A stretch of DNA of 64,000 nt from an uncultured Gammaproteobacteria bacterium (GTDB lineage Bacteria; Patescibacteriota; Microgenomatia; CAZTEW01): positions 12,432 to 76,431 of the forward strand of contig CAZTEW010000001.1 in assembly GCA_964612215.1 (NCBI GenBank), read 5' to 3'. Position 1 is the stretch's first letter, and every line of letters starts with the position of its first letter. A program made the translations under genes and the position numbers. The notes beneath the pieces were generated by a model. The model saw only the letters and a list, made by a program, of their open reading frames with translations, was not told the origin of the DNA and did no database searches. This document shows, piece after piece, positions 4,971 through 35,729 of the stretch.

Positions 4971-5447
4971 TCACAGAGCAAAGAGCAATCCGAGGATGAC
5001 GAGTGCGCCGCCAGCCAGAGCGGTGAGCCAGGTGGGTAGAGTGATGCCAGCTTCAGGCAGAGGAATCGGCGTCGGTGTTGGTAAGGCGTCTGGAGGAGCA
5101 GGCGGCGGCGTTGGCGTTGAAGTTGGTCCTGGGGTGGGCGTGGAAGTTGGTCCGGGCGTGCCGGTAGGCGTCGGTGTGCCGGTTGGCGTCGGTGTGCCGG
5201 TTGGCGTCGGTGTGGAGACGCCAGCGACATTAAAGCTTAAAGTGCAGGCGGCAACCGGATCCCTTTCGGCGGGTGGTAGTTGGGTGGGTGTGGCGGTCGG
5301 TTCCAGGGCCGGCGCCGGCTGGGGCGCGGTCGGAGCGACCGGCTGCTGGCGGAGCTGGTAGAGCCGCAAGGCAGTTATCACCGCAATCACCGCCAAGATG
5401 ACGGTCGCGCCTAAAATAAAAATTGTCGTCCGGTTTTTCTTTGGCAT
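4971..5447 (-). CDS. Small Pro/Thr-rich surface protein with N-terminal signal-anchor and C-terminal LPEAG-hydrophobic tail
   Basis: 158 aa. N-terminal TM. TPTPTGTPTPTG tandem repeats (tandem at the DNA level, 5100-5220). C-terminus LPEAGITLPTWLTALAGGALVILGLLFAL. Confidence 0.5.
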   Translation of the reverse strand: MPKKNRTTIFILGATVILAVIAVITALRLYQLRQQPVAPTAPQPAPALEPTATPTQLPPAERDPVAACTLSFNVAGVSTPTPTGTPTPTGTPTPTGTPGPTSTPTPGPTSTPTPPPAPPDALPTPTPIPLPEAGITLPTWLTALAGGALVILGLLFAL

Positions 5448-5451
5448 ATTT

Positions 5452-6843
5452 TTATCTCCAGCCTAGCGAGGGATTTTTTACCATCGCCTCGACCGTATAA
5501 CTACCTGAACTGGGAACTTCATACTGGACATAGAACTTGCCTGATTTTTTGCCGGTCGGTATTTGCCAGCTGCCGGCGTTAAACCGGAAGCGAGCGTCAG
5601 TAATGCCCTGAGGTTCTTCGCAACCGCCAGCGACCGCAAAATAAATTGTCTCGCCGACGCTGATCGTATTGAGATTGGTAATCGGCTGCCAATCCTCATT
5701 AAAAGCCGCCAGGCTGGTACAGCTTAAACTGTATTCTTGACCAGCTTCGCACCCCTCAACACAACCATGATCGCTGTTATGGCAGATGTCAAATCTAATG
5801 TCAGACTGCCAGGCACAATATTGAGGCGGACCATTGGCACTATTAGTATTGCCTCTGGTCCAGACTTCGTCTGGAGTGAGAGTCACTGCTTCGGAAAAAT
5901 CGCCACCGCTACAGAAGCAACTATCATTGTTTTGATGATCACACCAACGAGAAAACCAAACAGCCGTGCCGCTAATTGGCTGGTCAGTATTATTGATGAT
6001 CTTGACGCCGCCTTTATTTGCCTGACATTCTAAAGTGCCGCTGCCGACGCAAGTGCCGCCTTGACATTTGCCGGAAGCGCAATCTGAATCATAAACACAA
6101 CCAGCGTGACTGCCGCAGCTTTTACCACTAGCGCAATTGCCATTATCGACACTGCATGATTCCCAGTGAGCACAATCATTAGGGCCAGAGCAACAACCAG
6201 GTTTGCCAGGTTCTGGTTCAGGTTTACAGACGCTGCAGTTCGGATCATCGGTTTTCATGCATTGCTGGCCTTCGGCACAATCCTTGGTGCCGCTGCAGCA
6301 TTGCGTTCCCGGCGGGCTGGTGGGGCCAGGTGTTAAATCACCAGAACAGGGAGAGTTAGCTGGGTCAGGATTGACTGCTCCGGCGGAACAAGTGTACTGA
6401 TGGGTATCAGCATCACACCAAGTATCTGGCAAATCAATATAATTACAAGCTTGGTCACAGCCCCAGCGGCCGTCGGCATCGCAAGTGCTCCAGCCAGGTT
6501 CATGACCATTACATTTATGTTGGGGATTGTCAGGGTAATTACAGATATTATCGGCCATTTTGCGGACTTCCTGGCGCTGTTTGACTAGGGTCAAAGCCAC
6601 CGGCAGGGAAATGAGAATCAAAGCGATACCGGCAATTGCGGCGGCGACCCGGCCTTTTTTCTTGTTTGCCGCCGGCTTAATTTCCGGAGTTTCTTGGATG
6701 TTCCCCGGCTCTGGCTGTTTGTCAGTTGGCGGTGGCGGTGGCGGTGGCGGTGGTAGCTCAGCTGGCGGCACTGGCTGGCTGGCGGGAGGATTAATACCGG
6801 AAAGAGTTGGCGTTGCTGGCGGATTGGTCGGTTGGTCAGGCAT
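5452..6843 (-). CDS. Cys-rich ectodomain protein with polyproline N-terminal tail and single TM (type II topology)
   Basis: 463 aa. N-terminal about 60 aa Pro-rich including PPPPPPPPP. Then TM, then LVKQRQEVRKMA motif. Extracellular region has more than 50 Cys in CxxGxC-like spacing. 1-nt overlap with the upstream gene. Confidence 0.5.
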   Translation of the reverse strand: MPDQPTNPPATPTLSGINPPASQPVPPAELPPPPPPPPPTDKQPEPGNIQETPEIKPAANKKKGRVAAAIAGIALILISLPVALTLVKQRQEVRKMADNICNYPDNPQHKCNGHEPGWSTCDADGRWGCDQACNYIDLPDTWCDADTHQYTCSAGAVNPDPANSPCSGDLTPGPTSPPGTQCCSGTKDCAEGQQCMKTDDPNCSVCKPEPEPGKPGCCSGPNDCAHWESCSVDNGNCASGKSCGSHAGCVYDSDCASGKCQGGTCVGSGTLECQANKGGVKIINNTDQPISGTAVWFSRWCDHQNNDSCFCSGGDFSEAVTLTPDEVWTRGNTNSANGPPQYCAWQSDIRFDICHNSDHGCVEGCEAGQEYSLSCTSLAAFNEDWQPITNLNTISVGETIYFAVAGGCEEPQGITDARFRFNAGSWQIPTGKKSGKFYVQYEVPSSGSYTVEAMVKNPSLGWR

Positions 6844-8126
6844 TAAGGACTAAATTTAAAGTTTAAAAACAAGCCGCTAAAAATAAGGCTCAATCCCAGT
6901 ATGACAAAGAGAAGAGTGGGTGTCAAGTAGCCTGACTGAGGCACCCCGCTTTCAGTTGACGGCAAAGAAGTTCTTGGAACGCTGGTTGGCGTGGGGCTGG
7001 GGGTTGAAGTTGGCGAAACCTGGCCTGAAGGCGTGGCTGTAAAAGAAGGCAGGTCAGCCTCGCCGGCGGCAAGAATGGTAAATTCGCGGGAAACCGCGGC
7101 GCCGTCAGCGGTAGTAATCGTGATCGTGTGAACACCAGGTTCAAGATTAGCCGGCGGTACCCAGTGCCACTGGCCGTTTTCGTCAATCAAGACTTCGACT
7201 TCGAAGCTGGCTGAAGATTCCAGAATCAGGGTGACGGTTTCACCCTGAAGGCCGGTGCCCTGAAACTCAGGCCTCAAAGTATTTATCCCTTCACCTTCTT
7301 CAGGGTTAAGAATGGTTAACGGACTGATCCCGGGCCGATTGAGATTCAAAGGGTTAAGATTAAAGCCAGAGTTCCGGAATCCGGACGGCTGAGTCGGTTG
7401 AACCAGCGCCGGCCGGCGAAAATCATAAGTCTGGCCGAGAGTGATTTCTGGCACCGGCGAATCGTTTTGGCTGGTGACCAAAACCGTCGCTTCTCCCCAG
7501 CGGCCGGCCTGGACAAAAATTTCCTCGCTAGCGCTAGTACGGTCATAGTCAAAATAGCGAGTCAGGTCAGCGGTTCTGGCCATGCTTAAAGGAATTGTCC
7601 AGTGGCCGTCGGCCTGACTCAAGCCGGAAAGCGGACTGGCGCCAGCCAGGGTTAAATAAACAATCGCTTCCTGGCTAGGAGTGCCATCGGGTTGGAAAAC
7701 CTGGCCGTAGGCGGCGTCAGCCGCCGCTGCGGTCTGAAGATAAGGGCCGGTGGCGACTTCGTAAGGCCGGCCCTGCTGGTCATAGAGTTTCTCACTAGAG
7801 CCAATTTTTAAATAATATTTTGTTTCCGGCTGAAGATTTTCAATTTTTAAATAATGAAGCAAGTTAGTCTGGGTTTGAGTCTGGGTTTGGGTTAGAGAAA
7901 GAGAAGTTCCGTATTTGACAAGACCGACCGTTTCCTGATCAGTGATCCAGGAGACAGTAAAGCTGTTGGCATCAATATTAGTCACTTTAATTTGTTGAGG
8001 GATTGTTTGGGGAGCGGCGCCGAGAAAGCCAGTCCCGCCTTTTCTCAGCAAGAAAAGGCTAGCGGTCACGGCTGTCAGAATTAAAAAAAGGGCCAGGAGA
8101 GTGGGAATTGATTTTTTAGCTTTCAT
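6843..8126 (-). CDS. Surface protein with FN3-like and bacterial Ig-like domains and C-terminal hydrophobic anchor
   Basis: 427 aa. N-terminal signal-anchor. FN3-like FTVSWITDQETVGLVKYGTS..YYLKIGS. Ig-like TVTLILESS..HTITITTADGAAV. PT-rich linker. C-terminus VPQSGYLTPTLLFVILGLSLIF. Confidence 0.5.
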   Translation of the reverse strand: MKAKKSIPTLLALFLILTAVTASLFLLRKGGTGFLGAAPQTIPQQIKVTNIDANSFTVSWITDQETVGLVKYGTSLSLTQTQTQTQTNLLHYLKIENLQPETKYYLKIGSSEKLYDQQGRPYEVATGPYLQTAAAADAAYGQVFQPDGTPSQEAIVYLTLAGASPLSGLSQADGHWTIPLSMARTADLTRYFDYDRTSASEEIFVQAGRWGEATVLVTSQNDSPVPEITLGQTYDFRRPALVQPTQPSGFRNSGFNLNPLNLNRPGISPLTILNPEEGEGINTLRPEFQGTGLQGETVTLILESSASFEVEVLIDENGQWHWVPPANLEPGVHTITITTADGAAVSREFTILAAGEADLPSFTATPSGQVSPTSTPSPTPTSVPRTSLPSTESGVPQSGYLTPTLLFVILGLSLIFSGLFLNFKFSP

Positions 8127-8425
8127 TCTTTTCCAGGCTGGCCGCTAGGATTGGCACTAGAGGTTGTTTCGTTAGCTTCTGCGACCGGCCCTAATTCCTC
8201 CAGCCGGCCTAATTCTTCTTCTGAAATCCGAAGACGTTCTTTAAGCTGGTTGATTACCTCTTGATTTAATTTAGGATCCAAGGGCTGCATTTGTTGATCG
8301 AGAATTTCCGGTAGAGTATATCGAGTTAAAGCTCGGTAAACATCAAAGCCTATCCAGACCGCCACGGTCAGTAAAGTGGAAACAGCTAAGCTGATTAAAT
8401 CGCGGTTGATTTTTTTCTTTTTCAT
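8123..8425 (-). CDS. Small membrane protein (pilus-operon associated, function unknown)
   Basis: 100 aa. MKKKK plus one TM plus charged C-terminal region. 4-nt overlaps on both sides suggest translational coupling. Confidence 0.4.
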   Translation of the reverse strand: MKKKKINRDLISLAVSTLLTVAVWIGFDVYRALTRYTLPEILDQQMQPLDPKLNQEVINQLKERLRISEEELGRLEELGPVAEANETTSSANPSGQPGKE

Positions 8426-9039
8426 GGCAAAGAATAGATTTGAGCCTGAATTGTTAACATAATTGATGTTTCTTCTTCAAGGCCTGACTTTTCTTCAGCA
8501 AAGTCAAAGTTTTTTAAAATTACCAGTCTTTCCAGTTTTTCTAAATCAGTTAAGAATTTTTTTAAATCTTCATAATTGCCAGCGGCGCCAAAATCCACTG
8601 CCAGCGTCAATAGTTCGCTTTTTGGCTCAACAGGCAAGAGATCAGCCTTTTCTAGTTTAAAGCTGATGAGCTGAACGTTGTTTTTATAGGCCAAATATTC
8701 CAGTTGTTTGATGAGCTGAGAAAACTCGCTTTTTTTCGGCAAGGCGGCTTCAATATAGACCAGGTCTGGCTGGACGCGCAAATATTCCTTTTGCGCCAAG
8801 GAAAGAGAATTGATTTTTTGTTCCAGCTTTTGGCTAGCCTCACCCTTATCACGGATTTCCTTGATTAAGCCGCTGATGGTTCTTAAACTCGGCCTAATCG
8901 CGAAAAAGCCGCAAAAAGCGACCGTTAAAAGCGAAACTGCTAAAAAAGTAACATCTTTCACCGCCTGATCTTGATAAAGACCACCCAGGCGATGATAGTA
9001 GCGACGGTATTGGTGGTAAGGCTGTTGGCGATTATTCAT
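8422..9039 (-). CDS. pilO: Type IV pilus assembly protein PilO-like
   Basis: 205 aa. Single N-proximal TM, coiled-coil segment, C-terminal ferredoxin-like region typical of PilO. Immediately follows the PilN-like gene. Confidence 0.5.
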   Translation of the reverse strand: MNNRQQPYHQYRRYYHRLGGLYQDQAVKDVTFLAVSLLTVAFCGFFAIRPSLRTISGLIKEIRDKGEASQKLEQKINSLSLAQKEYLRVQPDLVYIEAALPKKSEFSQLIKQLEYLAYKNNVQLISFKLEKADLLPVEPKSELLTLAVDFGAAGNYEDLKKFLTDLEKLERLVILKNFDFAEEKSGLEEETSIMLTIQAQIYSLP

Positions 9040-9607
9040 TTTTGATTCTGTTTAAAGAATCAGCGGCCGGTGTTGCTTCACTGGCGCTGACAGTAAACTC
9101 AATCAGGCCTGATTCTTTTTTCCTGACTTCTTCAAGATTAATTTTTTCTAACTGGAGCTTTTCTTTTAAGCCGGTGAGAAAATGATGAAAGCCGGCATCA
9201 GAAATGGAGGTGGCGCTAATTTGCCAGCCGCCTTTTTCGATTTTTAACTCTGTTAAAACAACGTCCAGGGGAATGATGACCGACAATTGCTGCAGCCGGC
9301 TGGCGGCCGGAATTTGTTCACCGCTTAAGCGGTTGATTTCATTAAGTCTTTGCTGCAGCCGGCGGAAATTGGTTTCTAAGTCTTCTAACGAGCCGACAAT
9401 CGCCTGTTGTTGTTTAATGGTTTCGCTCAAGTCCATCAATTCCCGGTCAAGCTTAAACCGGGAAAGAAAACAAACAATCACGATGAGTTCAGTAGTGATG
9501 ACAATCCAGCGGCCGACAGTCAGGGTCCAATGAAGCAACTTGCCTAAGGAAGTTTGTTCAAAAGTTTTGATAAAAAGCAAATTGATTTCTTTTTTCCAGA
9601 CAGCCAT
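9032..9607 (-). CDS. pilN: Type IV pilus assembly protein PilN-like
   Basis: 191 aa. N-terminus KKEINLLF matches the PilN INLLP motif. One TM, then periplasmic coiled coil. Confidence 0.55.
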   Translation of the reverse strand: MAVWKKEINLLFIKTFEQTSLGKLLHWTLTVGRWIVITTELIVIVCFLSRFKLDRELMDLSETIKQQQAIVGSLEDLETNFRRLQQRLNEINRLSGEQIPAASRLQQLSVIIPLDVVLTELKIEKGGWQISATSISDAGFHHFLTGLKEKLQLEKINLEEVRKKESGLIEFTVSASEATPAADSLNRIKNE

Positions 9608-9928: not shown

Positions 9929-11647
9929 ATGGTTGCTAATTTCTTAGGTCGGCGGCAGACGAACATTTCTTCCGCTGCCGCCATTATCAGTTTAATGATT
10001 GCTTTTTCCCGAATTCTGGGCTTGATGCGCAATCGGGTTTTGGCCCATTTTTTCTCTTCCACCGAGCTGTCTCTTTATTTTGCCGCCTTTCGTTTGCCAG
10101 GGGCTGTTTTCGACATTTTAGTTTTCGGCGTCATTTCCGCCGCTTTTATTCCTACCTTTACTGCCTATCTGGCTAAAGATGAAGAAAAACAGGCCTGGCA
10201 AATTGCCAATGGAGTTTTAATTCTGGCGTTGCTGGTATTTTTAGTCCTCTCCGGCTTGATTTTTTTATTGGCGGCGCCTCTTTACCGCCGGATTATTCCT
10301 GGTTTTAGCCAGGAGCAAATTGACCAAGTGGTTTTCCTGGCCAGAATCTTAATTGTTTCCCAGGGATTTTTCCTGCTGTCTTACTTTTTGACCGGCATTT
10401 TGGAATCATGGCAGCGCTTTTTAGTGCCGGCGATTGCGCCGATTTTCTATAACCTGGGAATTATCGGCGGCACGGCTTTTTTGGCGCCGAAATTGGGATT
10501 AACAGGGTCGGTTTTAGGCGTCGTGGCCGGCGCTTTTTTTCATTTTATTATTCAATTGCCTCTAGCTTTCAACCTTGGCTTCCGGCCGCGGTTAATTTTT
10601 AATTTTTCCCAGCCCGGTTTGAAAAAGGTGGGTCGATTAGCCTGGCCGCGGATAATTGAGCTTTCTCTTTTAGAGCTGGCGAAAACCATTGAGCTTTTTT
10701 TTGCTTCTCTAGTTTCAGTCGGCGCCTATACTTGGTTGACTTTTGCCAATTCGCTGCAGCTCTTGCCGGTGGATCTTTTCGGCACCAGCTTGGCCAAAGC
10801 CACCCTACCGACCTTTTCTTCTTTAGCGGCCCGCGAGGAAAATGACCAGTTTAAAAAAGTTTTTCTTTCATCCTGGCAGCAAATTCTCTTTTTAACTTTG
10901 CCGGCGTCGGTTTTTCTGGTGGTTTTGCGGGTGCCGATCGTCCGGCTGGTTTTTGGTGCCGCCCGCTTTACCTGGGAATCAACTTTGGAGACCGGGTACA
11001 CTCTTTCGGTTTTTTGCCTGGCGATTTTTTCTCAGGCTTTAGTTTTACTGCTTAACCGCGCCTTTTATGCTTTTCAAGAAACAAAAACAGCCGTGAAAGT
11101 TTCGGTTTTTTCTACTTTAATCAATATTATTCTCAGCGGACTCTTGATCTTAATTTTAAAATTTCCCCTTTGGGGGCTGGCTTTGTCTTTTACCCTGGCT
11201 TCTTTATTGCAGTTTTTAATTCTTTTTCGGCTGCTGGCAAACAAACTGGGCGGCTTTAGCAAAGAAGAAACCCTAACTCCTTTTTTGAAGACCGCCTTAG
11301 CAGCTGTTGTTGCCGGCGGTCTGATGTTTTTTCTTTTGAAAATTTTTGACCGGTCGGTTTGGGATAAACGGCTGTCTTTTTTAAATTTTTTCGGCTTGAG
11401 ACTTTCCACCAGCCTGGAGAAATTCGTTCTCGATACCCGCTACACGACTAATCTCATATTATTAACGGCTTTAGTGGCCCTAGCAGGCGCCGGGGCTTAT
11501 TTAGGCTTAGCTTGGGTTTTGAAAATCAAGGCCTTAATGGTCTTTTTAAAAACCGATTACCGGCTGGCCGGAAGAAATTTCTTTAAAGAGCCAGACCGAG
11601 AAATAATAACAGCAACCCCGAAAGAAGGCTCAGAACCGTTGGTGTGA
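9929..11647 (+). CDS. murJ: Lipid II flippase MurJ (MviN)
   Basis: 572 aa, 14 TM helices. N-terminus SRILGLMRNRVLAHFFSSTELSLYFAAFRLPGAVFDI matches the MurJ signature. Confidence 0.85.
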   Translation: MVANFLGRRQTNISSAAAIISLMIAFSRILGLMRNRVLAHFFSSTELSLYFAAFRLPGAVFDILVFGVISAAFIPTFTAYLAKDEEKQAWQIANGVLILALLVFLVLSGLIFLLAAPLYRRIIPGFSQEQIDQVVFLARILIVSQGFFLLSYFLTGILESWQRFLVPAIAPIFYNLGIIGGTAFLAPKLGLTGSVLGVVAGAFFHFIIQLPLAFNLGFRPRLIFNFSQPGLKKVGRLAWPRIIELSLLELAKTIELFFASLVSVGAYTWLTFANSLQLLPVDLFGTSLAKATLPTFSSLAAREENDQFKKVFLSSWQQILFLTLPASVFLVVLRVPIVRLVFGAARFTWESTLETGYTLSVFCLAIFSQALVLLLNRAFYAFQETKTAVKVSVFSTLINIILSGLLILILKFPLWGLALSFTLASLLQFLILFRLLANKLGGFSKEETLTPFLKTALAAVVAGGLMFFLLKIFDRSVWDKRLSFLNFFGLRLSTSLEKFVLDTRYTTNLILLTALVALAGAGAYLGLAWVLKIKALMVFLKTDYRLAGRNFFKEPDREIITATPKEGSEPLV

Positions 11648-12686
11648 GAAAGCCGGTTGCCGGCAAGTCTTCAGCGTCGGCCACCGTGAAAGAGACCGAG
11701 TCAGTGGTGGTTTGGCCGCTGCTGTCAGTGGCAGTGACTGTGGCCGTATGGCTGCCGGTTTCCAATTCGCTGGGCGGCGTCCAAGACCAGTTGCCGGCCG
11801 CATCAGCATAGACCATGCCGGTGATCGGCGTTGATTGCACGGTGATGGTGATTTTCGCTCCGGGAGCCGCGGTGCCAGATAAAGTTGGCGGATTACTGCT
11901 GCTGGAAATACTGCTTAAGCTGACCGGATTACTGGAGGTTCCGCCACCAGAAGCGGTAGTCGGTGTTGCCGTCGGCGAGGCGCGAGTTGGCGTCGGCGTG
12001 TTAGTGGGTTCGCCAGCTGATTGAGTGGGTGTGGGAGTATTCGTTACTCCGGCTGATTCTGTCGGCGTGGCCGTGGCTTCTGGCGGTATGGTTGTTGGTG
12101 TCGCCGTGGCTGTTGCCCCACCGCCAATCGTGTAAGAGCCATTGCTCGTCGGCGTCAAAAGAATATCGACATTGTCAATCTTGCTTTGAATTTTGCTTTG
12201 TTGAGGATCGAAACTTAAAACCACCGGATTAACCGCCGGCACTTCATTAGCCACGAGATTAAAAGAAGCGAGTAAAGTATCGCTGGCAGCGGTAAAGCCT
12301 TCAGTGGTAATATTAGCGCAGGCGATATCAATTTCAACCTGACTGCCTGTTGGAGTAATGGTTTTCACCGGACACATCCAGTTGCCGCTCGTCAGAAAAG
12401 AAGGATTAATTTGTAGACTAGAAGCCGTTAGGTTGCCGCTCAACGGATAAGTAATCCGCACCGCAATCGAAGAAATGGGAATGCTGACTGGATTAAAATA
12501 GACGCTGACTGGAAATGATTGGCCGACTTCATAATTACCTGAAGCTGGCGAAAGAGAAACTAGGGCTGTGCCGCTTGGCGTCGAAGCTCTTTTTCTGATT
12601 TCCTGACGCTGTTTGACTAAATAAACCCCCAAAGGAATGGCGACAATGACCAAAATAATAAAGAGTAAAATGGCAATTTTTTTCAT
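11583..12686 (-). CDS. Surface protein: N-anchor, cohesin-like domain, PT linker, Ig-like domain, C-terminal LPATG-hydrophobic signal
   Basis: 367 aa. N-terminus MKKIAILLFIILVIVAIPLGVYLVKQRQEIRKRA. Cohesin-like beta-sandwich region identical to that of 13294..14712. C-terminus LPATGFLTPTVLSLLSGLLLLFLGLAL. Confidence 0.5.
   Translation of the reverse strand: MKKIAILLFIILVIVAIPLGVYLVKQRQEIRKRASTPSGTALVSLSPASGNYEVGQSFPVSVYFNPVSIPISSIAVRITYPLSGNLTASSLQINPSFLTSGNWMCPVKTITPTGSQVEIDIACANITTEGFTAASDTLLASFNLVANEVPAVNPVVLSFDPQQSKIQSKIDNVDILLTPTSNGSYTIGGGATATATPTTIPPEATATPTESAGVTNTPTPTQSAGEPTNTPTPTRASPTATPTTASGGGTSSNPVSLSSISSSSNPPTLSGTAAPGAKITITVQSTPITGMVYADAAGNWSWTPPSELETGSHTATVTATDSSGQTTTDSVSFTVADAEDLPATGFLTPTVLSLLSGLLLLFLGLAL
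12205..12605. repeat. Copy A of perfect 401-bp direct repeat (partner 14219..14619)
   Basis: Compared both stretches base by eye and they are identical. Boundaries set by flanking mismatches. Encodes the shared RKRASTPSGT..VLSFDP cohesin-like domain. Confidence 0.8.
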
Positions 12687-12689
12687 CGT

Positions 12690-13307
12690 TTATTTAATTT
12701 GGTAAATGCCTGTTAGAAAATTAAGCTTTACTTTTTGGTTATCTTTAGTTGTTAATTTAGTCTGTTGAGGATCAAAAGCTAGGATTAAATTTTCAATCGC
12801 CGCTTCGGCCGTCAATTCAATTGTGCCTAAAATATCTTCTCCGTTTAGTTGAAAACCAGTCAGGGTTGGGTTAACAGCCGCTAATTCAAGATTAACAGTT
12901 TTATTTTGCCAGTCAACCCAAACTTTATTGATTGGGTAGATCCAGCCCTGTTGCTGCCAGTCAGAATTAGGTTGAATTTTAGTGCTTTGGGGTTGTAAAG
13001 GCGGGATTTTATCAAAAGGATAACTTAAGTGAAGAGCAATGCCAGAAAGAGAAAGATTTTGACCGGTTAGTCTGATCTCCAAAGATAGGTTTTGATCAAC
13101 CACTAATTGACTGTTTTGAGGAACAAGAAAGAGACTGGCTTGAGTTTCTGTCGTCATTTGCTTTTCCGGCAAACTAGATTCCGTGACTGCTTGGTGGAAA
13201 GCTGGATTTTTTGTTCTCTGCAGATTGAGAAAAACTAGCCAGCTGCCTATCACTAATAAAATGATTAGACCAAATAAAAACAACTTTTTCATTTTATTGA
13301 TCTCCAA
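12690..13307 (-). CDS. Membrane-anchored single-domain protein (cohesin-like)
   Basis: 205 aa. N-terminal TM then LNLQRTKNP. Beta-rich domain ending LAFDPQQTKL, similar to the FDPQQSKI region of the neighbours. Confidence 0.4.
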   Translation of the reverse strand: MEINKMKKLFLFGLIILLVIGSWLVFLNLQRTKNPAFHQAVTESSLPEKQMTTETQASLFLVPQNSQLVVDQNLSLEIRLTGQNLSLSGIALHLSYPFDKIPPLQPQSTKIQPNSDWQQQGWIYPINKVWVDWQNKTVNLELAAVNPTLTGFQLNGEDILGTIELTAEAAIENLILAFDPQQTKLTTKDNQKVKLNFLTGIYQIK

Positions 13308-14712
13308 GTACAGTCAAGGCAGTATAGTTTAATAAAACAGCAGAGATATCATCAATTTCGATGAAACTATTAGCATTGACATCAAATTGCTGATTACTAG
13401 CGCTAACCGGCACTGATAGAGCCGTGTAAACGCCAATAACGGCGCCTACGTCATCAATGTCAAGCTGATTATCATTATTAAAGTCGCCGCTCTTAACTTC
13501 AATTGAATTCCAAGAAGCAGAGGCCTGATTATTGCTGGCTGTGAGAGTGATGTTGCCAAGTTTTTTTTGTAAATGACCGTTATCTTTAACAAGAACTTCA
13601 ACATTAACGCCACCAGCAGGGAAAGAGAGATTGGCCAGAGAAATAGGATTAACAGGTGCAAAAGAACTATGAGCGCCGCTTTGACAAATAACACTGGGAT
13701 AAACTTGACCAGACGGTCCTTTAAGAGTTACCCGGATAGATTTAGAAATTCCTTGTTGATTGATTCCTTGCATTCTGAAACCAAAAGAGAGCGTGGGAGC
13801 GTTAGTCGTGGCTTCAGCAATATTTGACAAATTAGAAATGTTGCCCGCAGTATCAATAGATTTAATGGCAAAATAGTATTTTGTTCCGGGATTAAGTCCA
13901 GAAACAGTAAATGTTTCAGCTTTTCCAGGGTTGCCTGGGATTGGTAATCCACTCACTGGTGTAGCGCTAGACCAATTAGTGTTAGTAATCACTGAAGTAG
14001 AATAGCGCAGGTCGTAAAGGTTGGCTTTTCCAGCTGGTCCTGCGTCAGCGGGAGCGGTCCAAGACAAACTTAAGGAGTTAAAGGAGACGTTAGTTATATT
14101 CAGATTAGTGATGGCGGCTGGCGGTGTCAAGTCTAGGTTAATTGTATATGAAGCAGCGGCTGGCGGTGTTAAGAGAATGTCTTGATTTTGAGCTTTGCTC
14201 ATGATTTTACTGGCGGCTGGATCAAAACTTAAAACCACCGGATTAACCGCCGGCACTTCATTAGCCACGAGATTAAAAGAAGCGAGTAAAGTATCGCTGG
14301 CAGCGGTAAAGCCTTCAGTGGTAATATTAGCGCAGGCGATATCAATTTCAACCTGACTGCCTGTTGGAGTAATGGTTTTCACCGGACACATCCAGTTGCC
14401 GCTCGTCAGAAAAGAAGGATTAATTTGTAGACTAGAAGCCGTTAGGTTGCCGCTCAACGGATAAGTAATCCGCACCGCAATCGAAGAAATGGGAATGCTG
14501 ACTGGATTAAAATAGACGCTGACTGGAAATGATTGGCCGACTTCATAATTACCTGAAGCTGGCGAAAGAGAAACTAGGGCTGTGCCGCTTGGCGTCGAAG
14601 CTCTTTTTCTGATTTCCTGCTTTTCTTGAGTAAGTTGAGAAGCAACAACCAAACCAATGATTAAAATTAAAAGAAAGAAAAAACCCAAAAGATATTTTTT
14701 CATTTTATTCAT
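13294..14712 (-). CDS. Surface protein: N-anchor, cohesin-like domain, FN3 domain, C-terminal type I dockerin
   Basis: 472 aa. N-terminus LTQEKQEIRKRASTPSG. FN3 LSLSWTAPAD..YYFAIKSIDTAGN. Dockerin repeats GDFNNDNQLDIDDVGAVIGVY and QFDVNANSFIEIDDISAVLLNY with Ca-binding D/N at positions 1, 3, 5, 9, 12. Confidence 0.55.
   Translation of the reverse strand: MNKMKKYLLGFFFLLILIIGLVVASQLTQEKQEIRKRASTPSGTALVSLSPASGNYEVGQSFPVSVYFNPVSIPISSIAVRITYPLSGNLTASSLQINPSFLTSGNWMCPVKTITPTGSQVEIDIACANITTEGFTAASDTLLASFNLVANEVPAVNPVVLSFDPAASKIMSKAQNQDILLTPPAAASYTINLDLTPPAAITNLNITNVSFNSLSLSWTAPADAGPAGKANLYDLRYSTSVITNTNWSSATPVSGLPIPGNPGKAETFTVSGLNPGTKYYFAIKSIDTAGNISNLSNIAEATTNAPTLSFGFRMQGINQQGISKSIRVTLKGPSGQVYPSVICQSGAHSSFAPVNPISLANLSFPAGGVNVEVLVKDNGHLQKKLGNITLTASNNQASASWNSIEVKSGDFNNDNQLDIDDVGAVIGVYTALSVPVSASNQQFDVNANSFIEIDDISAVLLNYTALTVLGDQ
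14219..14619. repeat. Copy B of perfect 401-bp direct repeat
   Basis: Identical to 12205..12605, offset 2014 bp. Confidence 0.8.
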
Positions 14713-15982
14713 CGCCAGGTATCACTAAAGCAGTATAATTTAATAAAATGCCAGAAACATCAGTGATATCAATCATATTATCACCATTAATATCAAATTG
14801 TCGAGTGCTGCCGCTCACCGGGACCGATAGAGCGGTGTAAACGCCAATGATGGCGCCAACATCGTCAATTGCAAGCTCGTTGTTGTTATTAAAATCACCG
14901 GCTTTGAGGATTTGTTCGGGCGCGTTGAGGAGAGCGGCTTGGCCGGCGGCGAGCTCGACTTGGCCGAGATTTTTTTGCAAATGAGCCCAGCCTTTGACGA
15001 AAACAGTATAAGCGCCGGGGTCAAGGTTATGGAGAGTGCCGACATAGACGCCGCTGCCGTCGTGACCGAACTCAAAATTATCAAAAATCTGATCGTTGCC
15101 ACTATTTGGTCGAAGAGTGACTTTAGCTGTTTTTACTCCTTTATCGCCATCAATGCCCTGAAATTTGATTTTAATCGTTAAATTGCCTTTTTGCGGTTCC
15201 TGGGTAGGCGTTGGGCTGGGAATTGGCGTGTTGGTCGGTGTCGGCGTGTTGGTCGGTACTGGCGTGGCGGTTGGGTTAGGCGTTGCTGTCGGCGTTGGTG
15301 TCGTTGTGGCGGTAGGCGTAGGTGTGTTCGTTGGTTCGCCGGCCGGAACAGCCTCAATGACAATCGCATCAGCGGTTCCCAAAATGTCTTCACCTGCCTG
15401 ACTAACAACATTGGTATCCGGCGTACTGCCTTGAATAACTGTTTCCTGGCAACTGGCATCAGCCGTACTGCGGAAGCAGAAACTAATCTTGCTGCTGCCT
15501 TCAGCCAGAGCTTTGAAAACAATAGTTGCTAAGGGATTGACGATGGTTTCAACAGGATCGGTAGCGCTATCAGCCATCCAATTAAAACCTAAAGCGCCAA
15601 AAGAAAGCATGCCGGTTTGATTGGCTTGAGCGATGACTGTGTCTTTATCAAAACTGCCATCTGCAAGAACCGGAGCAAAGGTTTTTAAGTTTGTGGTAAG
15701 GTTAGGCATAATATCCATTACTTGCAGTAAATTTTTATCAAAAGTTAATATGATATCAGCGGCAACGACACTTTGACCGCCAGGGTTAAGAATCAGATTA
15801 ACATCAAAATTGTTGCCAACTACTGGTTGAGTTTCGCCAGCTAAAACCAGTGCGGCGCTGTAGTTAACGGCTTTTTTTCTAATTTCTTGATGCTGCTGGA
15901 CAAGAATAGAAACAGTCACGAGAGCGGTTAAAAGCAGCAAAAAAGAAAAAATCGCCCACCAAGTTTTTCTGGTTATTTTCAT
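14705..15982 (-). CDS. Surface protein: N-anchor, cohesin-like domain, long PT linker, C-terminal type I dockerin
   Basis: 425 aa. N-terminus LVQQHQEIRKKA. PTNTPTPTATTTPTPTATP linker. Dockerin repeats GDFNNNNELAIDDVGAIIGVY and QFDINGDNMIDITDVSGILLNY. Confidence 0.55.
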   Translation of the reverse strand: MKITRKTWWAIFSFLLLLTALVTVSILVQQHQEIRKKAVNYSAALVLAGETQPVVGNNFDVNLILNPGGQSVVAADIILTFDKNLLQVMDIMPNLTTNLKTFAPVLADGSFDKDTVIAQANQTGMLSFGALGFNWMADSATDPVETIVNPLATIVFKALAEGSSKISFCFRSTADASCQETVIQGSTPDTNVVSQAGEDILGTADAIVIEAVPAGEPTNTPTPTATTTPTPTATPNPTATPVPTNTPTPTNTPIPSPTPTQEPQKGNLTIKIKFQGIDGDKGVKTAKVTLRPNSGNDQIFDNFEFGHDGSGVYVGTLHNLDPGAYTVFVKGWAHLQKNLGQVELAAGQAALLNAPEQILKAGDFNNNNELAIDDVGAIIGVYTALSVPVSGSTRQFDINGDNMIDITDVSGILLNYTALVIPGDE

Positions 15983-28277: not shown

Positions 28278-29276
28278 ATGAGAATTTTGGGCATTGAGAC
28301 GAGTTGTGATGAGACGGCGGCGGCCGTGGTTGAAAACGGGACAAAAGTGCTATCCAGCGTGGTTGCTTCTTCAGTGGCTTTACACCAAAAAACCGGCGGC
28401 ATTATTCCGGAAACCGCGGCTCGGGAGCAGGTTAAATATATTATTCCGGTTATAGAGGAGAGTTTAAAAGTATCAAGGTGTAAAAGTTTAAAAGAGATTG
28501 ATGCCGTGGCAGTGACCGTCGGGCCGGGTTTGATCGGTAGTCTTTTGGTCGGCGTGGAAACCGCTCGCGCCCTGGCCTATGTTTGGCAAAAACCAATTGT
28601 AGCGATTAATCATCTTCAGGCGCATCTCTACGCGAACTTTCTTAATTCAAAATTCAATCCGCCAGCTGGCGGACAAAATTCTGAATTATTCCCGGCGATT
28701 GGCTTGGTGGTGAGCGGCGGGCATACGGACTTGGTCCTGATGAAAGATCACGGGAAAATAAAATGGCTGGGCGGCACCCGTGATGATGCCGCCGGTGAGT
28801 GTTTTGATAAATGCAGTCGCTTGCTTGGTCTTAGCTATCCTGGTGGACCAGCGATCGAGGCGATCGCCTCTAAATTAAAAATTAAAAATGAAAAATTAAA
28901 AATTCTATTGCCGCGGCCAATGATGAATCAAAAGAATTATGACTTTTCTTTTGCCGGCTTAAAGACGGCTGTTTTTCATCAGGTGAGCAAGTTTACTGCG
29001 GAGCAATTAGCCAATGAGATTCAAGAGGCGATTGTGGAAGTGTTAGTGACGAAAACGATTAGGGCGGCTAAAGAATATCACACCAGGTCAATTTTACTTG
29101 GCGGCGGCGTGGCCGCGAATTCTTTGCTTCGCCAAAAGTTCAAAGTTCTACCGCCAAAAAATCTTTGTTCTGATAATGGTGCGGTGATTGCCGCCAGCGC
29201 TTTTTTTAATTACCGGCCAGTTAGTTGGCGGAAGATTAAAGCCAACCCTTCTCTTGGGATCGATGAAATTGTATAA
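28278..29276 (+). CDS. tsaD: tRNA N6-adenosine threonylcarbamoyltransferase TsaD
   Basis: MRILGIETSCDETAAAVVENG.., HLQAHLYAN, GGVAANSLLR are Kae1/TsaD signatures. Confidence 0.9.
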   Translation: MRILGIETSCDETAAAVVENGTKVLSSVVASSVALHQKTGGIIPETAAREQVKYIIPVIEESLKVSRCKSLKEIDAVAVTVGPGLIGSLLVGVETARALAYVWQKPIVAINHLQAHLYANFLNSKFNPPAGGQNSELFPAIGLVVSGGHTDLVLMKDHGKIKWLGGTRDDAAGECFDKCSRLLGLSYPGGPAIEAIASKLKIKNEKLKILLPRPMMNQKNYDFSFAGLKTAVFHQVSKFTAEQLANEIQEAIVEVLVTKTIRAAKEYHTRSILLGGGVAANSLLRQKFKVLPPKNLCSDNGAVIAASAFFNYRPVSWRKIKANPSLGIDEIV

Positions 29277-29283
29277 TATCTTC

Positions 29284-31341
29284 ATGGATAAAGCTTATCA
29301 GCCCCGGGAATATGAGGCTAAGATTTATCAATTTTGGGAGAAAAAAGGGTTTTTTAAGGCGACTCTTCAGACTGATAAAAAGCCGTTTGTGATTACTTTG
29401 CCGCCGCCAAACGTCACCGGCGGCCTGCATGCGGGCCACGCCATGTATGTTGTCGAAGACGTTCTTGCCCGCTACCATCGGATGAAAGCTGAGCCGACCC
29501 TTTTTTTACCCGGGTTTGATCATGCTTCCATCGCGGTTGAGTATTTAGTCAAAAAACAATTGGCTAAAGAAGGAAAAAGCAGGGAAGAGATCGGCCGGGA
29601 GGAGTTCCTGAAAAAGGCGGAAAAATTTGCTGAAGATTCTAAAAAATATATCCGCGGGCAGTTAAAAAAACTCGGCTTTTCTCTGGACTGGAGCCGGGAG
29701 GCTTACACCATGGATGTTGTCCGTTCTCAGGCAGTCAAAGAAGCGTTTCACAGGCTTCATCAAAAAAAGCTGATTTATCAAGGAGAGCGGATGATCCATT
29801 GGTGCGTTAAATGTCAAACGACTCTTTCTGATTTAGAAGTTGATTACCAAGAGCGAAAAGACCCGCTTTACTATTTAAAATATGGTCCTTTTATTTTGGC
29901 GACGACCAGGCCGGAAACCAAGTTTGGCGATACGGCGGTGGCAGTTAACCCGAAAGACAAGCGATATCAGTCCTGGGTCGGCAAAAAATTTATTTACCAG
30001 TCTTTAATCGGGTCGAGACAGATGAAAGTGATTGCTGATGAAGCGGTTGATCCGGAGTTCGGCACTGGGGTAGTGAAAGTCACACCGGCCCACGATTTTA
30101 ATGATTTTGAAATCAGCCAGCGACATCATTTAGATGTTCTAGCGGTAATTGACTGCCGCGGCAGGCTTAATCAAAACACAGGTCGGTTTAGCGGCTTAAC
30201 TATTCAACAGGCGCGGGAAAAAGTCGTAGCTGAACTGAAAAAGAAAGGCGATTTAATTAAAATTGACGAAAATTATCTGCATCGGGTGGGTACTTGTTAT
30301 CGCTGCGGCGCCGTGGTGGAGCCAATGATTTCCAAGCAATGGTTTGTCAAGATGAAACCTTTAGCTGCCAAAGCCATAGAAGCCGTGAAAACCGGTCGAA
30401 TCACCATCATTCCCCAGCGGTTTGAAAAGATTTATTTTCACTGGTTGGAAAATATTCAGGATTGGTGTATTTCCCGTCAGCTTTGGTGGGGTCATAAAAT
30501 TCCCTTGGCAGGCGAAGATGACGTTCTTGATACCTGGTTTTCCTCCAGCCTTTGGCCGATTTCTGTTTTCGGCTGGCCAGAAAAAACTAAAGATCTGCAA
30601 TTTTTTTACCCGACAACAGTCAGGGAAACTGGCTATGATATTTTATTTTTCTGGGTAGCCAGGGAAATTATGATGTGTTTGGCGATGACCGCTGAAATTC
30701 CTTTCAAAACTGTTTATTTTCACGGTTTGGTTCGGGATGAACAGGGCAGAAAATTCAGCAAGACCGCCGGGATTGGTTTTGATCCGGTTGAGATGATGGA
30801 GAAATACGGCGCTGATGCTTTACGCTTTGCTTTAGTCATTGGTAACGCGCCGGCTAGAGACCTGAAAATCCAGGAAAATAAGGTTAAAGCTTATCGTAAT
30901 TTCAGCAACAAGGTTTGGAATGCGGCGCGATTCATCACGATGAACCGCGAGGTCAAAACTCAATCCGCCAGCTGGCGGACAAAACTCAAAACTACAACTC
31001 AAAAGTTAAAGCTGGAAGATAAACAGATGATTAAAGAAATTAATCAACTAATCGTTTCAGCGACGAAACACTTAGATGAATTTCGTTTTGATTTAGCGGC
31101 AGAAGAAATTTATCAATGTTTTTGGCACCGGTTTTGCGATCATTATCTGGAAACAACCAAGTCGCGTCAAAAGGAGGCGGCGGCTCAGTGGACACTCCAG
31201 GTTTCTTTAAGAACTTTCTTAAAATTACTGCACCCTTTCATGCCTTTTATCACGGAAACAATTTGGCAGAAATTAAAAACCAAAAACGATCCAGATTTGA
31301 TAGTCGCACCATGGCCAGGAAAAATAAAAATCAGCCAGTAA
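29284..31341 (+). CDS. valS: Valine--tRNA ligase (short, CPR-type)
   Basis: MDKAYQPREYEAKIYQFWEKKGFFKA aligns with ValRS N-termini. HIGH motif GGLHAGHA. KMSKS-like KFSKT. Start set at ATG 29284, not the track 29188, which overlaps tsaD. Confidence 0.88.
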   Translation: MDKAYQPREYEAKIYQFWEKKGFFKATLQTDKKPFVITLPPPNVTGGLHAGHAMYVVEDVLARYHRMKAEPTLFLPGFDHASIAVEYLVKKQLAKEGKSREEIGREEFLKKAEKFAEDSKKYIRGQLKKLGFSLDWSREAYTMDVVRSQAVKEAFHRLHQKKLIYQGERMIHWCVKCQTTLSDLEVDYQERKDPLYYLKYGPFILATTRPETKFGDTAVAVNPKDKRYQSWVGKKFIYQSLIGSRQMKVIADEAVDPEFGTGVVKVTPAHDFNDFEISQRHHLDVLAVIDCRGRLNQNTGRFSGLTIQQAREKVVAELKKKGDLIKIDENYLHRVGTCYRCGAVVEPMISKQWFVKMKPLAAKAIEAVKTGRITIIPQRFEKIYFHWLENIQDWCISRQLWWGHKIPLAGEDDVLDTWFSSSLWPISVFGWPEKTKDLQFFYPTTVRETGYDILFFWVAREIMMCLAMTAEIPFKTVYFHGLVRDEQGRKFSKTAGIGFDPVEMMEKYGADALRFALVIGNAPARDLKIQENKVKAYRNFSNKVWNAARFITMNREVKTQSASWRTKLKTTTQKLKLEDKQMIKEINQLIVSATKHLDEFRFDLAAEEIYQCFWHRFCDHYLETTKSRQKEAAAQWTLQVSLRTFLKLLHPFMPFITETIWQKLKTKNDPDLIVAPWPGKIKISQ

Positions 31342-35262: not shown

Positions 35263-35729
35263 GACTGAACCAAGGCTTTTTTCACTAAAGCATCCGCTTC
35301 TTGATTTTTTTCCCGAGGAATGTATTGGTAACGAAAACAGCCGCCAGCTTCTTGTTCTAATTGCCTGATTTTAATAGCTAAATTTCGCAGCTGGTAGTTT
35401 TTAATCTTAAAAACGCCGTTTAATTGATTAACCACCAGTTTTGAGTCGAGGTAAAATTTAATTTTTGCCACTCGCCACTTGCCACTAGCTACGAGCCAGT
35501 TTAAAGCTTCAATAACCGCGGTGTACTCGGCTACATTATTAGTAGCATAGCCAATAGGTCTGCCAAATTTATGAATTGTTTTTTCCTCATAAATTTTTAC
35601 ATTTCGCAGAAATCCCGCCTTGCGGGCTTTTTCATTTTTAATTTTTAACTTTACTATCACGCCGATAGCGGCTGGCCCGGGATTGTTGCTGGCGCCGCCG
35701 TCAGTGAAAATGGTTAAAAGATTTCTCAT
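35259..35729 (-). CDS. rnhA: Ribonuclease HI
   Basis: IFTDGGASNNPGPAAIGV.., NNVAEYTAVIEAL, DSKLVVNQ, REKNQEADALV are RNase H catalytic motifs. Carries an in-frame insertion, listed in the next entry. Confidence 0.85.
   Translation of the reverse strand: MRNLLTIFTDGGASNNPGPAAIGVIVKLKIKNEKARKAGFLRNVKIYEEKTIHKFGRPIGYATNNVAEYTAVIEALNWLVASGKWRVAKIKFYLDSKLVVNQLNGVFKIKNYQLRNLAIKIRQLEQEAGGCFRYQYIPREKNQEADALVKKALVQS
35591..35649. mobile_element. Palindromic hairpin element copy 1, in-frame within rnhA
   Basis: aatttttACATTTCGCAGAAAT-CCCGCCTTGCGGG-ctttttcatttttaatttttaac. The core cccgc-ctt-gcggg is a perfect stem-loop. Encodes the extra loop KLKIKNEKARKAGFLRNVKI. Confidence 0.6.

Follow-up and report, generated by a model that had tools for sequence, protein, structure and literature searches.

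Conversion between surface-protein paralogues is an ordinary, textbook class of event. In the babA and babB genes of Helicobacter pylori, the opa genes of Neisseria and the tufA/tufB pair, an internal segment is copied non-reciprocally between two full-length, expressed paralogues, and conversion of the babA/babB type leaves a sharp step from identity to old divergence in chimeric genes whose ends keep their own identity. Cohesin modules are carried by CipA of C. thermocellum (Coh-X-DocII) and by anchoring scaffoldins, and ScaE of R. flavefaciens is a sortase-anchored single cohesin; the cohesin repeats of scaffoldins are kept very similar to one another. The locus described here lies in a 64-kb stretch (64,000 nucleotides, referred to as the window) of contig CAZTEW010000001.1 and comprises four minus-strand open reading frames (ORFs), p4, B, p2 and A, which abut or overlap in an operon-like array. 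Genes A and B share a tract of about 400 bp, and we found that this tract is very probably the product of a recent gene conversion, some 395-401 bp long, in the direction from A to B.

So understood, A and B resemble the babA/babB, opa and tuf systems in the features named above. They differ in that the tract covers one cohesin domain of modular proteins, which are encoded in one operon at a distance of 2 kb, and in that the organism is an uncultured, Patescibacteria-like bacterium for which no phenotypic switch is known. With cellulosomal scaffoldins the proteins have in common the cohesin fold (6kgf, 1aoh, 2xdh), a cohesin protein with an LPXTG-like tail and adaptor-like proteins that combine a cohesin with a dockerin. 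Unlike in the cellulosome, the window holds no glycoside hydrolase or other dockerin-bearing enzyme, and each protein carries one cohesin, with no tandem arrays, behind its own N-terminal transmembrane helix. The cohesin of A. fulgidus (2xdh) and the Coh-FN3 unit of C. perfringens GH84C (2w1n) are alike in fold, in a non-cellulose context and, for 2w1n, in the direct succession of cohesin and FN3; these are single modules on enzymes or orphan proteins, whereas here four cohesin genes and a putative anchor are found in one operon.

Extent, age and direction of the tract shared by A and B

The two copies, 12205-12605 in gene A and 14219-14619 in gene B, match at 400 of 401 bases, both in a pairwise alignment and in a base-by-base comparison at an offset of 2,014. 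The sole mismatch (G at 12210, A at 14224) distinguishes TTC from TTT, both of which encode Phe, and the longest perfect run is 395 bp (12211-12605, equal to 14225-14619). The five matching bases past the mismatch (GGATC) encode an Asp-Pro pair that is invariant in the family, and their identity may reflect conservation rather than conversion. In codons, the tract amounts to 133, with 398 of 399 nucleotides (nt) identical and the same phase in both genes; it begins at the first base of codon 28 in A and of codon 32 in B. It thereby encodes residues 28-160 of A and 32-164 of B, in which the QEIRKRA motif and a linker precede about 120 residues of the cohesin. The whole domain has about 148 residues, and its last two or three strands fall outside the tract.

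The first-pass annotation, which was made from the DNA alone, had described a perfect 401-bp direct repeat with immediately diverging flanks that encodes the whole cohesin-like module. The position and direct orientation of the repeat stand, as does a length far beyond chance (by our own estimate, about 16 nt is the longest repeat to be expected), and the alignment proposed there as a check returned one synonymous mismatch, not multiple ones. Its perfection does not stand, and neither does the coverage of the whole module: the domain reaches residue ~188 in A and ~192 in B, and the tract stops at 160 and 164. The statement on the flanks is correct for the signal-peptide side, where 27 codons show 42% nt identity and 4 of 27 amino acids in common. 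On the opposite side it fails, as low-level homology continues for 84 nt (28 codons; 56% nt identity, 17 of 28 amino acids).

In these 28 codons, A and B differ in codon choice at 11 of the 17 conserved residues, and synonymous sites are saturated between the two unconverted ends (12123-12204 in A, 14137-14218 in B). Past the cohesin domain the similarity of A and B is gone (26% nt). Because selection on the protein cannot hold synonymous sites identical, the tract is young and its flanks are old; purifying selection was accordingly rejected as the source of the identity, synonymous sites in the tract being identical too. The 400-bp tract is the longest repeat of the window, followed by pairs of 214 nt at 74% and 61 nt at 95% identity, and the repeat search found no further copies of the module DNA within the 64 kb. 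A scan for promoters and terminators gave nothing specific to the repeat, and the hairpins inside it are just the two copies.

The direction of copying is indicated by the relatives of the two proteins. A and B have different signal peptides and unrelated C-terminal halves, and each has its own family: the remainder of B is orthologous to B-type proteins over the full length (45-48% identity at 99-100% coverage), and A has a full-length orthologue of the same architecture (P0124, 42% identity, 99% coverage). Alignment of the shared module with the A-type modules of short anchored proteins in the related arrays L002 and L004 needs no indels and gives 50-51% identity, as compared to 36-40% for the modules of B orthologues, whose length is greater by 8-18 residues. 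Neighbour-joining trees resolve p4, p2, A-type and B-type clades, and the module of B from the window stands beside that of A inside the A-type clade. Since the tract nests in the A clade while the rest of B is B-type, we consider B a mosaic and A the donor. The unconverted tail of the B cohesin is ambiguous as to whether it keeps B-type characters, judging from the sequence: 17 of 28 residues agree with A of the window, and about 14 of 26 agree with a B-type orthologue (counted by eye). The earlier proposal of recent gene conversion or concerted evolution between two surface-protein genes is thus supported by the abrupt identity step and by phylogeny, and the direction from A to B can be added to it.

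According to this reading, about 395-401 bp of the A cohesin coding sequence would have served as template and overwritten the equivalent part of B non-reciprocally, presumably through the homologous recombination or repair machinery of the cell acting on the neighbouring paralogue. The 5' edge of the tract is the DNA for QEIRKRA, which is conserved in all members of the array (CAR GAA ATH AGA AAR ARA GCN), and a second conserved patch just 3' of the tract encodes DILLTP (GAY ATY CTY YTR ACN CCG). The present tract is probably the latest of several rounds that homogenised copies already similar; an earlier replacement of the B cohesin by an A-type one would have supplied the homology needed for it. 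After the conversion, B would display exactly the same docking surface as the anchor A. The shared codon phase means that any crossover inside the tract yields an in-frame hybrid. Such a crossover would delete the body of B together with p2 and leave the signal peptide of B joined to A, and the reciprocal crossover would duplicate the unit.

Related arrays and competing explanations

An array with the same gene order is present in L099, a 24-kb contig from another sample, in which p4'-B'-p2'-A' lies between DnaK-GrpE-HrcA and MurJ-S20-PilN-PilO and the housekeeping flanks are 71-76% identical in nt to the window. The cohesins of A' and B' share 65% amino acid identity, with a 206-nt tract at 82.5% nt identity (8262-8467 and 10211-10416). 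Compared to the module of the window they reach 33-38% and represent a third type. By these identities, the A and B cohesins cluster by genome and not by gene. The other end of the operon is homogenised as well: the C-terminal beta-sandwich and dockerin of B' and p4' are related over 531 nt at 83% (7559-8087 and 8949-9474), and the two dockerins are 97% identical in protein. They are only 33-35% identical to the dockerins of the window, which reach 48-57% with those of much more distant arrays. The p4 cohesin, in contrast, is 68% identical between the window and L099. The comparison thus indicates that the cohesin type of A and B and the dockerin type of B and p4 changed together, while the p4 cohesin did not change. 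Contigs from three further samples reproduce the L099 pairing at 99.3-100% nt identity and show no mismatch in the array; L100 has none in the array region, and L102 is 100% identical. The middle domain of B' also differs, showing a faint Y_Y_Y match where B of the window has FN3.

Other relatives vary in the same places. For example, the A orthologue of L098 is 89% identical in nt over window positions 12111-11552 (the 3' half) and 73% over the signal peptide, while window positions 12112-12585 have no nt similarity to it; here the conserved borders enclose a different cohesin (L098 1149-1613). P0122 is built in this way too. The A slot holds at least three unrelated cohesin types, with the borders unchanged (QEIRKxA ... 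DILLTP..SYTI). L003 contains a 277-nt repeat (7786-8062 and 9261-9537; 95% identity) that spans those ends of the p4-like and B-like genes that encode the dockerins and takes in the start of the gene that follows. These sequences suggest that the domains of this operon family are repeatedly homogenised or replaced between paralogues. The comparison with relatives suggested in the first-pass annotation therefore revealed cassette variation (L098, L099), with the order of the array kept in L099.

The first-pass annotation had offered duplication as a second origin of the repeat. The direct orientation and the paralogy of the four neighbouring genes would suit a recent tandem or segmental duplication followed by the divergence of all but 400 bp, yet we give this account almost no credence, since synonymous sites in the flanks are saturated as far as the borders of the tract and the C-terminal halves are unrelated (Big_13 and LPATG in A; FN3, beta-sandwich and dockerin in B). 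Moreover, A and B are old: each is conserved as a gene of its own in L099 and also in more distant arrays, and their order is kept. A B-type module lies 1.3-1.8 kb upstream of an A-type module in L002, L004, L046/47 and L052, and about 0.6 kb upstream in L048, and B-type and A-type modules of one genome share 25-41% protein identity. Conversion is preferred over duplication because A and B are separate in these syntenic relatives and because the B orthologues carry a different, longer cohesin. A misassembly would be of another kind: the two modules might be only similar, or only one gene might have the module, and the same consensus would have been threaded through both. The window comes from a metagenome assembly, and the warning of a collapse risk given in the earlier annotation was apt. 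A MEGAHIT contig from ENA (L001), which equals window positions 10594-14294 at 100%, crosses copy A with both unique flanks and the lower junction of copy B, and then breaks off after 76 nt of copy B. Only one record contains the exact B protein, and contig L007 (described below) is most simply a walk around a cycle induced by such a repeat, which would show that assemblers are confused by it. Even so, we regard an artefact as quite improbable. Mis-threading needs shared k-mers at both edges of the B tract, which a real B could provide only by being near-identical to A at those places. Each junction is in frame and leaves the domains intact, and the full-length model of B has a predicted local distance difference test score (pLDDT) of 87. 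The copy-specific base at 14224 is reproduced in L001. In addition, A and B pair by genome in L099 at 65% amino acid and 82% nt identity, levels that collapse cannot account for, and the contigs of three further samples reproduce that pairing at 99.3-100%.

A broader alternative is a selected exchange of cassettes, in which the cohesin slot (A, B) and the dockerin slot (B, p4) are swapped as matched sets between conserved borders, docking specificity is changed or kept, and the 400-bp tract is one step of a system of functional variation. The replacement of the A slot by at least three unrelated cohesin types in genes whose 3' halves are up to 89% identical in nt fits this idea, as does the joint change of cohesin and dockerin types in L099 with the p4 cohesin left as it was. 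It also recalls Neisseria pilE/pilS, Borrelia vlsE and Mycoplasma MgPa, where an internal variable segment is converted between conserved borders of a surface protein. In contrast to those systems, no silent donor cassettes are visible in the window, which has one long repeat only, the donor is itself expressed, and the three samples of the L099 population (L099, L100, L102) show no variation or switching of the array. No invertase, reverse transcriptase or other dedicated machinery was seen beside the operon, and the co-variation comes from one genome pair, so that we consider such a system unlikely.

Several points nevertheless weigh against a simple conversion from A to B. A few true differences between the copies could have been lost to bubble-merging during metagenome assembly. 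The source contig is alone in showing the junction of the B signal peptide with the tract (14619/14620), and a single NCBI record has the exact B protein. The direction rests on phylogeny, not on a pre-conversion B of the same lineage. Finally, the conserved patches are too short for efficient homologous recombination of native A-type and B-type modules. Because these native modules are 25-41% identical, the first A-type replacement in B cannot have been ordinary homologous recombination.

The repeat also leaves its mark on databases. The closest "B orthologue", P0002 (70% identity), joins a signal peptide and module like those of A to the body of B, and L007 (Logan SRR28106079_342724; 2,007 bp) consists of a p2 tail, a hybrid gene and a p2 head. 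Both of its ends fall within p2, about 20 nt from each other and in one frame, so that L007 is an unrolled cycle of tract, B body, p2, A start and tract, for which the window has a spacing of 2,014 bp. The cycle is most simply a de Bruijn walk through the shared repeat, or else a true product of unequal crossover, and P0002 is probably a chimera from an assembly walk around it. An older, wider conversion as the source of P0002 and L007 was not preferred, given the position and frame of the contig ends. Either way, a second lineage, at 75-82% nt identity to the window, shares module sequence between A and B. The suggestion that the repeat is a recombination hotspot is consistent with the common phase of the tract in the two genes and with L007 as the unrolled 2-kb cycle between the repeats. 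For annotators and assemblers the locus is a warning, as such a repeat breaks or circularises short-read contigs and yields chimeric database "proteins", probably including P0002.

The cohesin-dockerin operon and its proteins

The operon p4-B-p2-A is predicted to encode a non-cellulosomal cohesin-dockerin surface assembly. In it, A is the putatively cell-anchored cohesin with an LPATG tail, B and p4 combine a cohesin with a C-terminal beta-sandwich and dockerin, and p2 is a lone membrane-tethered cohesin. The gene p4 comes first in the direction of the operon and overlaps B over 8 nt, and the tract of B lies 2,014 bp upstream of that of A. All four proteins begin with a hydrophobic helix, which in p4, B and A is followed by Q-E-I-R-K-K/R-A. 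From there, A continues with the cohesin (residues ~41-188), a Pro/Thr linker, an Ig-like Big_13 domain and LPATG with a hydrophobic tail. In B, the transmembrane helix (4-29) and QEIRKRA are followed by the cohesin (45-192), FN3 (~200-302), a beta-sandwich (305-396) and the dockerin (409-472). The order in p4 is transmembrane helix, QEIRKKA, a cohesin of another type, Pro/Thr linker, beta-sandwich and dockerin. p2, which sits between the copies of the repeat, has a transmembrane helix and a cohesin-like module, with neither QEIRK motif nor dockerin.

The name "cohesin-like", given from the DNA alone, is borne out by structure prediction. Pfam PF00963 has no match on A or B, and the shared module by itself gives nothing; p4 stays below threshold (E = 2e-4; 21.9 bits against a cut-off of 24.1), and distant A-like relatives (P0169-P0176) carry precomputed PF00963 matches. 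The module was modelled with AlphaFold2 on A residues 25-195 and an alignment of 17 homologues (pLDDT 88.8, predicted template-modelling score 0.83). In a Foldseek search against the PDB, the first 41 matches to it are all cohesins (best 6kgf_C, E = 8.8e-11, template-modelling score 0.77), at 10-21% identity to the solved structures. The module of A and B is accordingly predicted to be a cohesin fold, a nine-stranded jelly-roll beta-sandwich, which covers model residues 17-164 (A residues 41-188). p2 is a full-length homologue of the A-type module profile (hhalign probability 98.4%, E = 9e-15, 188 columns), and p4 aligns to the cohesin module with 95% probability over its N-terminal 78 columns.

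The dockerins were assigned from loop patterns, profiles and models. Dockerin loops occur in the window only in B and p4. B has both calcium-binding loops, DFNNDNQLDIDD and DVNANSFIEIDD, while in p4 the strict loop pattern matched the second loop only, its first segment being DFNNNNELAIDD. The full-length model of B (pLDDT 87.1) ends in two C-terminal helices, with a helix after each dockerin loop (419-428 and 453-462), and its best PDB matches are Coh9-X-DocII of CipA (4fl4_C, 3kcp_A) and Coh-FN3 of C. perfringens GH84C (2w1n). A profile of 13 C-terminal tails (the C-terminal 65 residues in B and p4) finds dockerins at the top of the PDB matches (3kcp/2b59, E = 2e-6). Pfam Dockerin_1 (PF00404) matches 11 of the 13 family tails, with a best E of 2.5e-9; B of the window alone is sub-threshold (E = 0.051). 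The C-termini of B and p4 are therefore predicted dockerins with two tandem loop-helix segments. They may dock on the cohesins of A and B, as indirectly indicated by the joint change of the cohesin type of A and B and the dockerin type of B and p4 between the window and L099, the one genome pair in which this co-variation is seen. The similarity of the 3' ends of B and p4 within the window would reflect older paralogy or an older conversion between the two genes.

The hydrophobic tail after the LPATG of A has 22 residues, without a basic residue at its end. LPXTG-like ends with hydrophobic, non-basic tails are present in three minus-strand proteins of the window, LPEAG (4971-5447), VPQSG (6843-8126) and LPATG (11583-12686), and no TLxTC sortase signature was found in the 64 kb. 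A transmembrane helix followed by Q-E-I/V-R-K-K/R/M-A is shared by four proteins, namely A, B, p4 and a Cys-rich 463-residue ORF (5452-6843). The QEIRK motif is disordered in the model of B. A metagenome scan, which used five A-type sequences, returned at least 600 stretches with [KR]Q[RH]QEIRK, and many confirmed QEIRK loci match only the first ~55 residues, so that the motif occurs on otherwise unrelated proteins. It may be a lineage-specific sorting or processing signal. Our literature search found no paper mentioning the motif, nor any relevant one on cohesins or dockerins in Patescibacteria (candidate phyla radiation, CPR) or on gene conversion in scaffoldins. A scan of GTDB genomes with B gave matches only to FN3 domains of unrelated phyla.

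The homologues bear the names Patescibacteria group, Microgenomates, Woesebacteria and Pacebacteria, and we place the operon family in Patescibacteria/CPR because of these names. The tract draws attention to a cohesin-dockerin operon that is small and conserved in uncultured Patescibacteria-like bacteria with poorly understood surface structures and host attachment, and the operon is a compact natural case of concerted evolution at the level of domains. A wider picture can be drawn, although we hold it to be doubtful: cohesin and dockerin modules would be exchanged as matched sets at short conserved borders, conversion within the operon would keep the cohesins of A and B identical, and B and p4 would stack head-to-tail on the anchor. 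By this means an episymbiotic, Patescibacteria-like cell would obtain a surface fibre or attachment organ that assembles itself, is specific to the lineage and has its specificity reset by cassette replacement.

Coordinates and neighbouring sequence

Table 1. Positions in the window of the genes, repeat copies and motifs of the p4-B-p2-A operon
Feature	Position	Strand	Basis or remark
Gene A, 367 aa	11583-12686	-	ORF; Pfam Big_13, E = 9e-13; AlphaFold2; Foldseek
LPATG of A	11652-11666	-	sequence motif
Unconverted 3' end of the A cohesin coding region, aa 161-188	12123-12204	-	B counterpart 14137-14218, 56% nt
Repeat copy in A, putative donor	12205-12605, perfect core 12211-12605	-	alignment
Gene p2, 205 aa (about 200 aa if the start is the ATG at 13292)	12690-13307	-	ORF; hhalign
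Predicted dockerin-coding 3' end of B	13276-13489	-	74% over 214 nt to the p4 3' end, 14687-14900
Gene B, 472 aa	13294-14712	-	ORF; Pfam fn3, E = 3.4e-11; AlphaFold2; dockerin profile
Repeat copy in B, putative recipient	14219-14619, perfect core 14225-14619	-	alignment
Predicted dockerin-coding 3' end of p4	14687-14900	-	partner of 13276-13489
Gene p4, 425 aa	14705-15982	-	Pfam Cohesin, sub-threshold; hhalign; dockerin loops
QEIRK-type motifs	12585-12605, 14599-14619, ~15869-15889, ~6553-6573	-	motif in four proteins

An Rfam scan of the window gave one tRNA only, far from the operon. MurJ and S20 separate the operon from PilO-like and PilN-like genes (8422-9607, minus strand) at a distance of about 2 kb. 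L099 keeps this neighbourhood, and the counterparts there are annotated PilN and PilO by Pfam. Two shorter direct repeats are found elsewhere in the window, both inside mechanically called long ORFs. The pair at 35592-35652 and 38890-38950 (61 nt at 95%) contains a GC hairpin and then a T-run, and the pair at 28647-28688 and 30953-30994 (42 nt at 88%) contains the palindrome CCGCCAGCTGGCGG.

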